In this document: piece after piece, positions 20,668 to 52,710 of the stretch | How the letters are laid out: the number at the start of each line of letters is the position of its first letter | Position numbering within the stretch: position 1 is the stretch's first letter | From: Octopus vulgaris | Lineage: Eukaryota | Direction: 5' to 3' | Assembly: GCA_951406725.2 (NCBI GenBank) | Contig: OX597828.1 | Span: forward strand, 21,204,001 to 21,268,000 | Length of the DNA stretch: 64,000 bases | Translations under genes and position numbers: made by a program | Notes under the pieces: generated by a model | The model's database searches: none | Told to the model about the DNA's origin: nothing | What the model saw: the letters and a program-made list of their open reading frames with translations, nothing else

Positions 20668-21430
20668 TTTTTCTACTCTAGGCACAATGACCAAAATTTT
20701 GGGGAAGGGGGCCAGTCAATTAGATCGACCCAGCACGCAACTGGTACTTAATTTATCGACTCCAAAAGGATGAACGGCAAAGGCGATCTCGGAGGAATTT
20801 GAACTCAGAACGTAAAGACAGACGAAATACCTATTTCTTTACTGCCCACAAAGAGTTACACACAGAGAGGACAAACAAGGACAGACAAACGGATTCAGTC
20901 GATTATATCGACTCCAGTGCGTAACTGGTACTTATTTAATCGACCCCGAAAGGATGAAAGGCAAAGTCGACCTCGGCGGGATTTGAACTCAGAACGTAAC
21001 GGCAGACGAAATACCTATTTCTTTATTATCCACAAGGGGCTAAACATAGAGGGGACAAACAAGGACAGACAAAGGTATTAAGTCAATTACATCGACCCCA
21101 GTGCGTAACTGGTACTTAATTTCTTCGACCTCCGAAAGGATGAAAGGCAAAGTCGACCCCGGCCGAATTTGAACTCACAACGTAACGCAGACGAAATACC
21201 TATTTCTTTATTACCCACAAGGGGCTAAACACAGAGGGGACAAACAAGGACAGACATAGGTATTAAGTCGATTATATCGACCCCAGTGCTTAACTGGTAC
21301 TTAATTTATCGACCCCGAAAGGATGAATGGCAAAGTCGACCTCGGCGGAATTTGAACTCACAACGTAACGCAGACGAAATACCGCTAAGCATTTCGTCCG
21401 GCGTGCTAACGTTTCTGCCAGCTCGCCGCT
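20668..21430 (-). mobile_element. SINE family 2 tandem array: head + 3 tail-B units + terminal tail-A unit
   Basis: ~185-bp period; junctions read gaaatacc|tatttcttt near 20830, 21015 and 21200 on plus. Confidence 0.92.
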
Positions 21431-22279
21431 TTAACGCAAAGACAAATAATAACGGACAACTGTTGTAGCAATGATAAAACTATGAATACAAACAAACAAC
21501 AGAGCTAAAAGAAACATTGATAACAGTTATTTATCGATGTAGAGATAACAGACTGCAGCCATAAGAACAACGTGTAGCAGTGTGATGAAGAAGATAACAG
21601 AGAATAACGTAAAAGATACAATGAGCTAAAACAGCTAATTATACCACGGTATGATATCGAGATAACAGACATTATCTATTGCGGTGTGATTAAAAGAATG
21701 CAGATAAAGAACGATGCTGGGTTTAACGATAACAGCTACGATAGCAAAATGGTGTGGAATGGAAGGAGAGAGAAATGTTAGAAATGAGAGAAAGAGAACC
21801 TCCCTCCCACCAAAATAGAAAAACACACACACACACACACAAAACAAAAACAAGATCAAACTCTTTGAACAGGTATAACAATATTTCAATAGGAGTAATA
21901 CAACAGGGTGTAGATTTATATAAGAGCAAATTCATTAAATATAACAAGGTGTAAATCAAATGACATCAAACTCCTATTAAATCTAACACCTTTAATGATT
22001 TACATCAAATATAATAATGGTATTCTAGGCGTAAATGTCAACCTTCAACAGCTCTTAAATAAAGGGTGTGATTTTATAACCCTTATCTCTTGTTAAATAT
22101 AACACAGTATTAATATATAATATATAAGCCTAGTCCCTTGCAACAAGGTGTTAATCGATAGCAATCAAGTGTTATTAAATATAACAATGAGTAAATGACC
22201 ACGAGGGCTGCAGTATAAATAAATAAATAAGTAGTTCTACAGCTAGCCAACAAATACATCTAAAAAGGAAGGCCACATT

Positions 22280-22590
22280 AAGTAGTGAAGTCTGGGGTCT
22301 GCATGAGAAGGGTGTCCGTGGAACATTACGGTTTCTCGGTTTCCTTGGCGTATAGGTTCCCCACTTGGACGGGACGCCGGCCCATCGCAGGAAAGCTGCA
22401 AAATGCAAGAGGAAAGAGTGAGAGAAAGTTGTGGCGAGTCAGCAGAAGTTCGCCATTACCTTCTGCCGGAGCCGCGTGGAGTTTAGGTGTTTCGCTCATA
22501 AACACACACATCGCCCTGTCTGAGAGATTTATACCCGCAATCCCTCGACCGCGAGTCCGCTGCTCTAACCACTATGCCATGTGCCTCCAC
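22280..22590 (-). mobile_element. tRNA-derived SINE family 4
   Basis: Minus strand ggaggcacatggcatagtggttagagcagcggactcgcgg; body gagcgaaacacctaa shared with 49315-49615. Confidence 0.8.
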
Positions 22591-23324
22591 CCTATCAAAT
22601 ATAAGAATACATATTTAACACCAAGTGTCCGTGGAACAATACAAGGAGTAGACGTGCGTATAACATGGAACTCCCGAAATGCCCAGTTTATGTTAAAGAT
22701 GACACAGAGTATATTTATATCATGTAACTCTTGTTGACAACATCATAGAAGGTACCCTCTAATATCAAGCATCAACATTTTACGAAATATTTCGTACATC
22801 AACCCCAAGCAATTGTTAACAATAAAATTGAGGCCATACTCCGTACAACAACACACCCAGTCACTATATTTATAACATTCAACAATTGATCATGTCATGC
22901 GATCTACTGATATCATTCAGCTTTCATTAACAATAATATACTAATTAACATCGACCAACTAAACATAACAGAGTGACTATTTAATAGTCTGAACTCATAT
23001 ATTAACAATAAATTCACTTATTTGTCATCTAACTACTGGCAAAATTTAATACATTTTAGAATTACAACTTTTATCTCTTTTGATCATAAAAATGACAAAC
23101 AAACAAAGAGTATTCATAAACAACTAGTTCATGCTGTAAATAACTTCGATATTATTAATACAGCGGCAACAATTGTTTCTCCATTAACGTAGAGGGCGTT
23201 TATAACAGCTTGTCATAAGAAGATTGTATGTACAACATTTGTAACAACAGCGCTTGATTTATGCACTACGCTGACTTTATAACATAGACCACTTGCTAAA
23301 ATTGACTTAGCTATATCAGCACAT

Positions 23325-49615: not shown

Positions 49616-51759
49616 ATATATATATATATATATATATATATATATATATATATATATATATATATATATATATAATCAGCCGAAATTGCGAGGATGATCC
49701 GGTTTATAGATTAAAGGCTTCGAATGACCCGTCCGTGTTTTTTGTATCGTCTATCTGAATGTTTTGCGTTCTTGTCCCATTTTTTATTTTTATATATATA
49801 AAGGCTGCAGACTAGTTTATATATATATATACTAGTCTGCAGCCTTGCCTGAGGACACGTAGGGATACCATTGTGACATTCGGTGTGTATTGGTCTATTT
49901 TAGGCTTTCTGTGGTTCATCTCCTTCTAGGTATGATACGATTTATTCCAGAAAGAGAGAAAGAGAAAGAGAGAGACAGAGAGAGAGAGAGAGAGAGAAGA
50001 GAGAGAAGGAAAGAGAGAAAAGAAGACTACAGTAACCCGGGTTTATAGCCCTTGTGTTTGCGGTGCTGACTTATTATTGATCACGGTGGCTTTTGAAGGT
50101 CCTTAAGTGTAGGTCCTTAAGTGTTTTGTACGTCCTTAAGTATAGGTTTACAGGTGAGGGTGTTTGAAGTTTGAAGTACTTCGAGAGAGAAAGATGGACG
50201 GAGAGAGAGGGAGAGAGAGGGAGAGAGAGAAAGAGGGAAGGAGGGAGAGAGATAGAGATTAGATAGATAGATAGATAGATAGAGAGAGAGAGAAAGAGAG
50301 AGAAAGACAGACAGAGAGAAAGAGAGAGAGAGAGAGAGACAGACAGAGACAGATAGATAGATATATATTTCTGGTGCAGAGATATTGTTGTTCATAACGG
50401 TTTTGTAAGTTTTTATGGTCTGTTTTCTCTGATGGGCTGAGTGTGTTGTGTATCGTTTTGAGTTGGCTGTGAAGGCGTGGCGTTTGGAGCTTTTGAAACA
50501 AGAATTTCAGCAAAACGAAAAAGGTTTTATTGAATACTGTAAGGTTTACATACTAATGTATATACTTGGCTTAGGGTCTTCACTGTAAATGGGGTGGGAA
50601 GGGCACCATCGTGTCTTGGACACTTTTAGACTTGGCCTAGGCTATCTCCCTCATCAGGTCTGACCTTTTTTAGAGAGTGTTAGAGAGAGAGAGAGAGAGA
50701 GAGAGAGAGAGAGAGAGAGAGAGAGAGAGATAGAGAGAGAATGTGTGCGAGTAAGTGTCACAGAGAGAAAGGGGCACACACACACACACGCGTACACACA
50801 CACACACACACACAGGCACACACGCACACAGAAGCACACACGCACAAACACGCACGCACACTTACACACATACAGAAAGACAGAAAAAGAAATATCGACA
50901 CCAGTACATGACTGGTATTTTATTTATCGTTAGTGCACGATAAAAAATAAATGTTGGCTTCAGCTGTGTTCGAACTCACAGCGCAGAGAGCAAGAAGAAA
51001 CGCGCACGCACACTTACACACATGCAGAAAGACAGCAAAAGAAATACCGACACCAGTACATGACTGGTATTTTATTTATCGTCAGCGTAACGATAAAAAA
51101 TAAATGTTGACTTCAGGTGTATTCGAACTTACTGCACACAGAGCGAGACAAACACACACACACAGGCATGCGCGCGCACACCCATCCGGGAAAAACAAAA
51201 ACAAAAAGAACTTTCTGTTGTTTTAATAGTTCTGCCATTTCTAACTATTATACCTTTAGATGTCGTAAATTACTTTTAGATTAAATATATTTAGTATTCT
51301 CACTAGTTTCATACTTGTATTTCGACAAAATCACTTAGTTTATACTAAATTAAAATTAAAACAAAAAAAAAAAAAAAAAAGGATTTTTAAACCATTTTCA
51401 GTTTATAAATGAAAACTAATTATATTTAATGGTTATTAGCACGATTAAGTCTTTGATGTAATTATTTTTTTTTGTCTTAAGTTGTTCCATATAACATGTT
51501 TTTGCTTTATTTTGTTCCTTTTTGTCTTGTATTATGGATAAAATTGAGTTAATATATTGAATAAAATAAGGATCTAATTTTCTAAATCAACTAATTTGTA
51601 GTTTTTATTCATCGTCCGCCATAGTTGATTATCATGATGGAATAGTTCAAAAGGGAAAAAAAAATCCTTTCTACCAAATGCACAAGGCCTGGAATTTTGG
51701 GGGGAGGGGCTAGTCGATTACATCGACCACAGTGTTTAACTGGTACATATTATATTGAC

Positions 51760-51987
51760 GGCGAGCTGGCAGAATCGTTAGCACGTCGGGCGAAATGCTT
51801 AGCGTTATTTCGGCTGCCGTTACGTTGTGAGTTCAAATTCCGCCGAGGTCGACTTTGCCTTTCATCCTTTCGGGGTCGATAAATTAAGTACCAGTTACGC
51901 ACTGGGGTCGATGTAATCGACTTAATACCTATGTCTGTCCTTGTTTGTTCCCTCTGTGTTTAGCCCCTTGTGGGTAATAAAGAAATA
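51760..51987 (+). mobile_element. Full-length SINE family 2 tail-B monomer with 18-bp TSD, inserted antisense into an old tail-A copy (51665-52120, -)
   Basis: ggtacatattatattgac at 51742-51759 and 51988-52005. Confidence 0.93.
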
Positions 51988-52129
51988 GGTACATATTATA
52001 TTGACCCCTAAAAGATAAAAGGTGAAGATGACTTCAGTGGAATTTGAAACTAGAGAGCAGGAAGACACGCCGATAAGTATTATCTCCGACGTGCTAAAGG
52101 GTTCCATAAGTTCGCCACCGTGGTAAAAA

Positions 52130-52710
52130 AACCTTTCTACTGGAAGCACAAGGGCTCAAATTTGGAGGAAGGGTATTAAGTCGATTACATCAACCCCAGT
52201 ACGTAGCTGGTACTTATTTAGTCGACCCCGAAAGGATGAAAGGCAAAGTCGACCGTGACATAATTTGAACTCAGAACGTAAAGACGGACGAAATACCTAT
52301 TTCTTTACTACCTACAAGGGGCTAAACACAGAGGGAACAAACAAGGACAAAGGGATTAAGTCGATTACATCGACCCCAGTGCTTAAATTGAAATTTAATT
52401 TATCGAACCCGAAAGGATGAAAGGCAAAGTCGACCTTGGCGGAATTTGAACTCAGAACGTAGCTGCAGACGAAATACCTATTTCTTTACTACCCACAAGG
52501 GGCTAAACACAGAGGGGACAAACAAAGACAGACAAACGGATTAAGTCGATTATATCGACCCCAGTGCGTAACTGGTACTTATTAAATCGACCCCGAAAGG
52601 ATGAAAGGCAAAGTCGACCTCAGCGGAATTTGAACTCAGAACGCAACGGCGGACGAAATACCACGAAGCATTTCGCCCGGCGTGCTAACGATCCTGTCAG
52701 CTCGCTGCTT
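52130..52710 (-). mobile_element. SINE family 2 array: 2 tail-B units + tail-A unit
   Basis: Junctions near 52298 and 52478. Confidence 0.9.

Follow-up and report, generated by a model that had tools for sequence, protein, structure and literature searches.

Insertion of an octopus SINE into its own head and the growth of its 184-bp tandem arrays

Related systems and the octopus element

It is already known that Tx1-type long interspersed elements (LINEs) can drive target-biased short interspersed elements (SINEs) with tandem insertions, that dimers arising from site preference can expand, and that satellites can derive from SINEs. Here we analysed a stretch of 64,000 nucleotides of Octopus vulgaris DNA (C15:21204001-21268000, hereafter the window) and a 231-bp SINE ending in a 3' tail termed tail B, which inserts at position 48 of its own family's head and is found in tandem arrays with a 184-bp period. 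A SINE that favors its own promoter region as a target, at tens of thousands of sites, is new within the literature searched: our searches, which covered largely open-access papers and no entries of Repbase, Dfam or SINEBase, found no description of this self-insertion.

In crocodilians, Tx1-clade LINEs are reported to mobilize a SINE (SINEU-3 / Tx1-Mar) with a Mariner DNA transposon as target, and its tandems sandwich a duplication (PMC4494074). Both cases combine a Tx1-mobilized SINE (probably so in octopus), a target inside a repeat and sequential tandem insertions. In octopus, however, the SINE targets its own head, and the joins are mostly seamless, with a head of donor type. For R2, complementary DNA (cDNA) is reported to anneal to the upstream target; most 5' junctions belong to a seamless 'anneal' class, and a smaller 'join' class contains the shared sequence twice (PMC11371274, PMC6895275). 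The octopus 5' junctions likewise show a seamless majority and a duplicating minority, but R2 is autonomous, uses a restriction-like endonuclease and resides in ribosomal DNA (rDNA), whereas here the homology comes from the head of the non-autonomous SINE itself. According to McGurk and Barbash, site preference leads to dimers and unequal exchange expands them to satellites (PMC5932611). Their case has an external shared site and a flanked duplication; in octopus the preferred site lies within the element, and every copy is a target.

Among SINE-derived tandems, the HCD-SINE arrays of the blood clam involve ~3% of copies, have truncated inner tails and were put down to unequal recombination (PMC11481361). 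They resemble the octopus arrays in their full-head first unit, inner units cut at one head position and single outer duplication pair, but the available part of that paper reports neither self-targeting nor a Tx1 link. Squamate SINE-derived satellites and Dip multimers were attributed mainly to unequal recombination and share partial-SINE tandems, longer end units and more uniform long loci with our arrays, whereas no fixed insertion site is shown in the accessible text (PMC10702118). The SINE and L1-Tx1 content of octopus, or SINE classes, are reported, but self-targeting is not, in the available portions of five papers (PMC13282606, PMC8967140, PMC4758252, PMC4824008, PMC3531059).

Self-insertion at head position 48

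The first-pass annotation of the window had described six array loci, two alternative tails and a 184-bp period. All of these are real, as confirmed by Tandem Repeats Finder (period 184 at 20714-21383, 23584-24415 and 43024-43364) and by reading the sequence. Tandem tail-B ends lie at 20832, 21016, 21201, 23509, 23679, 23862, 24047, 24231, 25952, 43206, 45669, 52298 and 52479. With positions counted on a natural 231-bp tail-B copy as a ruler, 12 of these 13 junctions resume at head position 48 (GGTATTTCG), two of them with one base altered, and the junction at 23509 resumes at position 15. This reproduces exactly the earlier count of 12 in 13 with an exception near 23508. The accompanying statement that arrays typically end in tail A held for four of the six, while those at 42975 and 45500 finish in partial tail B.

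The same junction is common across the 2.8-Gb, microsatellite-rich genome. Pattern searches returned 95,589 exact matches to the last 25 nt of tail B, for a family of ~100,000 copies, and 30,477 exact junctions of tail B with head position 48 (GGTATTTCRTC). A reversed control pattern gave 0, so the join is not due to chance. Of 158 tail-B ends gathered irrespective of their flank, 78 were assigned to position 48 and 7 to position 15. Among the 274 junctions of 461 pooled loci, a set enriched for arrays, the figures were 243/274 and 20/274. Across 40 arbitrary 10-kb stretches (400 kb), tail B was carried by 7/20 GGTAY sites at SINE position 48 vs. 3/988 elsewhere, a ratio inflated by local duplication and moved arrays. 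A five-base motif cannot account for this bias.

The target duplication of tail-B monomers has a median of 15 bp (25 loci), in place of the ~18 nt proposed earlier, and extra A residues often precede the head. The flanks of non-self targets (n = 103, a few of which may be decayed self junctions) loosely follow [G/A/T][G/A]TAT, almost without C at the first two places, and not the RGTA preference first suggested.

Inside the head, a pattern of position 48-60, a short gap and a new head, which marks sense, non-seamless insertions, had 130 exact matches genome-wide. We fetched 30 such loci and, after dropping one duplicate, read 29 distinct ones. At 20 of them, a full tail-B copy lies inside a resident head and position 48 follows again, mostly with 13-20 matching bases. 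Seven of the others have a non-SINE 3' flank (one is perhaps a decayed in-place case), and two have no tail. At several loci (L084, L085, L094, L096, L099), both duplicate copies have resident-specific bases that the insert lacks. Thus, the tail-B SINE inserts independently at position 48 of its own family's head, as the first-pass annotation had supposed. From pattern counts, we roughly estimate that non-seamless joins make up ~1-2% of position-48 junctions.

In-place insertions with duplication exclude both a single multimeric master and pure DNA duplication as the origin of the arrays. An explanation without targeted insertion –DNA tandem duplications, or descent from one multimeric master– would suit the homogeneity of long arrays. 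It is hardly credible, since in-place target duplications exist, the units of dimers are unrelated, and last units vary in their tails and have private decay. Descent of all arrays from one master, which would have told against the original proposal, is contradicted by the in-place duplications and by the unrelated dimer units.

Within the window, the four-unit array (20668..21430, minus strand) consists of a head, three tail-B units joined at position 48 that differ in subfamily markers, and an old tail-A1 unit. In the six-unit array (23325..24462, minus strand), five tail-B units alternate in a 369-bp higher-order pattern and a tail-A1 unit is joined at position 15 (junction 23509/23508). 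The dimer at 25780..26182 (minus strand) reads head-B-[48]-A1, has a decayed target duplication on both flanks, and pairs a head with the tail-B-subfamily variant (43G/48C) with a last unit of A1 type. A second dimer (42976..43364, plus strand) lies behind an (ATT)n tract, and its unit 2 is broken off inside tail B; unit 2 of a third (45507..45899, minus strand) has a shortened tail B. The trimer at 52130..52709 (minus strand) has two tail-B units and a tail-A unit. Beside it (51742..52005, plus strand), a full-length tail-B monomer (51757-51987) is antisense in a tail-A copy and flanked by an 18-bp duplication (51742-51759, 51988-52005). Since this orientation provides no homology, both head and duplication are visible. 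For comparison, the window holds an unsplit tail-A monomer (42636..42829, minus strand) and a 5'-truncated one (49009..49195, plus strand).

The element is short, dispersed, high-copy and non-coding, as expected for a tRNA-derived SINE. Its putative tRNA-like head has complementary GGCGG/CCGCC ends and a B-box-like GAGTTCAAATTC; ARAGORN gave no match, and neither did Rfam in 20000-27000. The central domain may resemble that of Nin/Deu type. A ribozyme or retrozyme origin of the 184-bp unit was rejected, since Rfam in the same interval gave nothing past (TA)n noise. Tail A comprises at least three subtypes. Tail-A copies also chain head-to-tail where newcomers have inserted into the AT-rich or (ATT)n stretch that ends an earlier copy (L023, L026, L054 and others; window 42911-42975).

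Donor heads and array growth

For the seamless arrays, we propose as the main route a position-48 self-insertion, in-place replacement of the resident head by the donor head, and subsequent unequal exchange; we put its probability at about 0.62. Insertion, probably by the enzyme of a Tx1-type LINE, would come first, with the ~15-bp duplications, the loose [G/A/T][G/A]TAT preference, the strong preference for GGTATTTCG in the own head and the minor site at position 15 described above. The full-length cDNA would then pair with the homologous resident head, much as R2 cDNA anneals with upstream rDNA, and repair would keep the donor strand and leave a seamless pair. Roughly 1-2% (an estimate) would fail to pair, so that two heads and the duplication stay. 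The two ~115-bp bodies, now 184 bp apart, would recombine unequally into near-identical chimeric inner units, up to 11 units in all, a step that is strongly indicated. Finally, composite transcripts would be copied to other sites, as seen for a minority.

The identity of the head was assessed on 47 head-B-[48]-A1 dimers, 24 of which had been picked for the 61T/63T marker in the last unit. Of the two units, the last is the older, with body CpG decay of 113/700 vs. 62/701 (p = 4e-5), where free A1 and B copies show 122/640 and 124/1249. Decay in the dimer head (60/462) is like that of tail-B copies (113/827) and unlike that of tail-A1 copies (96/424, p = 2e-4). The B-type head variant 43G occurs in 9/47 dimers, 2/41 free A1 and 19/84 free B copies. 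The resident markers 61T/63T, which lie within the expected overhang, are present in the first unit of 2/40 dimers. In most dimers, therefore, the first unit is donor-type both in its head and at positions 48-63.

This result runs counter to the mechanism first put forward, in which the resident head is kept, its ~18-nt overhang anneals and primes the seamless join, and every unit is a fresh insertion. The resident bases kept in 2/40 dimers and the mixed subfamilies of some short arrays (window 20668) would agree with it. With donor-type heads and positions 48-63 in most dimers, and near-identical chimeric units in the long arrays, we regard it as very improbable. Collapse at the DNA level of the ~63-bp head repeat after an ordinary two-head insertion also seems improbable, if somewhat less so: head repeats are unstable, but such collapse would leave about half of the heads resident-derived, which is not seen, and ~98% of sites must have collapsed. 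Tandem runs of the 64-69-bp head alone, which illustrate this instability, occur at C10:17996023-17996501, C5:87874785-87875487 and C13:69036080-69036321, and at L077 and L098; they form another type of SINE-derived tandem, which probably grew out of insertions with two heads.

A further alternative is that self-insertion is rare, confined to the ~1-2% with two heads, and that dimers are re-mobilized: the promoter of an inserted copy would read through the resident, and the dimeric RNA would be copied via its last tail, giving seamless joins and donor heads. Under in-place replacement, flanks should be old and last units unrelated; re-mobilized dimers should instead show young flanks and shared mutations. 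Leaving out flanks that were SINE or simple repeat, the mismatch of flank duplications was 0.150, 0.145, 0.135 and 0.145 (four window settings) in 75 A1-ending arrays, 0.11-0.14 in 37 A1 monomers and 0.085-0.12 in 66 B monomers. A first estimate (0.177 vs. 0.085) shrank with more data and shifted windows. Among 80 last units, the pairs sharing at least two derived non-CpG mutations numbered 39 vs. 39.1 expected. In 39 B-B dimers the two units are unrelated (distance 0.111 within vs. 0.117 across dimers, p = 0.21). The flank ages and the unrelated last units both lean to in-place replacement.

Re-mobilization would, moreover, require hundreds of equally active source loci (a rough estimate), since last units show no excess of shared mutations, and the flank duplications are less young than the first unit. 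A1-type bodies also occur more often behind tail B (4,262) than behind an intact head (3,538), although the two patterns are not equally strict. On the other side, sense insertions that can be seen as such (130 exact) are similar in order of magnitude to antisense ones (2/291 ends), tail-B ages overlap those of the youngest A1 monomers, and dimer heads are entirely donor-like. We therefore consider re-mobilization as the general origin of dimers unlikely, though it deserves serious weight.

Several observations weigh against in-place replacement as the main route. CpG transitions show no gradient of resident sequence in the head (positions 6-21: 25/180; positions 28-36: 35/282), and a 5' gradient seen at first was not upheld in this pooled test; replacement would thus need to be nearly complete, and re-mobilized dimers explain this more simply. 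Six or seven of the 29 non-seamless loci are moved composites. Between arrays and B monomers, the flank-age intervals meet or overlap under each of the four settings, clearly in two. We saw no pre-insertion allele; public contigs on the arrays gave no locus-specific view of such alleles or of unit number. In the 49 arrays with penultimate units considered below, the 5' part of the penultimate unit shows just a weak tendency toward the last unit (24 vs. 18). Finally, no autonomous LINE that carries tail B or is inserted at position 48 turned up in four pattern searches of the genome. They gave 0 matches, 18 (only SINEs and an ORF1-only family, ORF standing for open reading frame), 42 (all SINEs among the 30 read) and 11 (truncated or rearranged SINEs).

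Array size was scored in 276 tail-B loci, a sample enriched for arrays: 119 are monomers, 95 dimers and 14 have at least five units, with a maximum of 11. The divergence of neighboring B units in dimers is 0.110, against 0.108 across; it is 0.069 in 3-4-mers, and in arrays of at least five units it drops to 0.027, against 0.075 across. Units have their nearest relative within their own array in 7/74 cases for two-B arrays vs. 35/38 for the long arrays (at least five units). Thus, the suggestion that array units are polyphyletic stands for B-B dimers and fails for long arrays, whose units are mostly closest kin. Inner units are often chimeric, with 5' markers as in the last unit and 3' markers as in the first; in penultimate units (49 arrays), the 3' part is clearly closer to the first unit (32 vs. 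11). Near-identical chimeric inner units are a hallmark of unequal exchange: arrays are seeded by insertion and lengthened by recombination.

It is therefore strongly indicated that arrays of at least five units are locally duplicated chimeras grown by unequal exchange, and not, as first thought, the product of a new insertion for each unit. Short arrays that mix subfamilies, such as the one at window 20668, may record repeated hits. With 11 units at most, the arrays fall short of the long homogeneous runs of satellite DNA and are not yet satellites. Two further loci deserve mention. At window 20633, ~52 extra bases beside the first array appear in runs X4, X5 and X7, a flank indel unrelated to SINE units. 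One ~815-bp SINE composite with identical flanks occurs at four C1 places (L315, L317, L318, L319), pointing to a segmental duplication or a larger carrier element.

Partner LINEs, targeting and significance

Tail B resembles L1/Tx1-type 3' ends by sequence comparison, in line with the Tx1-like tail first noted: its start matches the 3' untranslated region of a LINE in the window over 29/30 nt, and tail B is like the tail of a (TATC)n-ended family over 36/42 nt and that of an ORF1-only family over 52/58 nt. None of these three families targets the site of the tail-B SINE. The window LINE (1..3572, plus strand) is the 3' part of a ~5.4-kb L1/Tx1-type element with an intact ORF2 (2-3343) encoding APE endonuclease, reverse transcriptase (RT) and zf-RVT domains (Pfam). 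Its closest solved structure is L1 ORF2p (E 9e-65), and ORF1 pieces lie upstream. The family is young and full-length, with 97-99% protein identity among the top copies (L181-L210).

The window LINE sits in the head of a different tRNA-type SINE (family 1), the remainder of which follows at 3573..3960 (plus strand). All 30 best copies, including the window copy, end at one site in the family 1 SINE head while the SINE flanks vary; the 5' junction and a 16-bp duplication were seen for the window copy only. APE, RT and a C-terminal zinc motif with an upstream ORF1, together with a sequence-specific repeat target, are features of the Tx1 clade. We infer that the element is Tx1 rather than L1 from its target specificity, its duplication and its lack of poly(A), its homologues having no informative names. 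A LINE specific for SINE heads is a candidate new target class for its clade.

The second L1/Tx1-type family is represented by three 5'-truncated pieces (5924..8457, plus strand) whose 3' ends at 6804, 7972 and 8457 run into (TATC)n; it also occurs at window 46440-46609 and at L040, L056, L070, L113 and L148. The ORF1-only family (L229-L258) is non-autonomous and zinc-knuckle-like; its 3' junction is nearly always CAGT, and copies often form nearby pairs. Other LINE ORF2 sequences, probably CR1-like by their motifs, lie at 55256-58039 (minus strand), 61505-63001 (plus strand) and 12104-12529 (minus strand), one frame having 927 aa. Unrelated minisatellites occupy 41348-42304 (56 bp, 16.7 copies) and 19349-19830 (23 bp, 21 copies).

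What directs the SINE to its own head may be linked to its tail. CAAT tails were found at self position 15 in seven cases and at position 48 in four, whereas for TAGT tails the numbers were 0 and 127. At non-self flanks, CAAT favors AGA and TAGT favors GGT (7:5 vs. 2:23, p = 0.002). Exact CAAT|AGAAA ends number 3,237 genome-wide; in some cases the AGAAA flank is a copy of the end of the tail made by slippage. This association fits two partner enzymes or guidance by read-through RNA; endonuclease preference alone is unproven as the cause of the position-48 bias. As a guess, we favor a short enzyme motif whose effect is reinforced when read-through RNA pairs and when homology aids completion. 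A comparison of 5' and 3' duplicates for RNA-templated bases gave no significant difference (6 vs. 2, p = 0.29), which counts against our interpretation; an earlier 17 vs. 2 was discarded as circular, the motif having been chosen from the 3' copy and microsatellite alignments kept.

A more tentative idea, possible at best, is that of a homing SINE. Read-through RNA from head-resident copies would carry the target sequence and direct new copies to that one site throughout the family, each hit overwriting the putative RNA polymerase III promoter of the old copy with a young one. Hints are the link between tail variant and target, composite RNAs copied from an inner tail, and a complementary tail start: in one tail-B subfamily (window 21185-21270, minus strand), the first part of the tail can pair over 9 nt with the tail end and the downstream target, closing a stem (z = -2.4). 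If true, a young subfamily would capture about half of the loci of an older one and seed tandem repeats in doing so, in a genome whose L1/Tx1-type LINEs specialize on SINE heads.

The tail-B SINE offers a countable route from a dispersed element to a tandem array, toward satellite DNA, in which donor and resident can be told apart by age. It also provides a large natural experiment on LINE-type 5' junctions when homology is given –anneal versus join, and which strand prevails– a problem addressed chiefly in R2. In practice, such SINEs yield mosaic copy ages and mosaic subfamily trees, and automated repeat libraries will break up their copies or label them wrongly.

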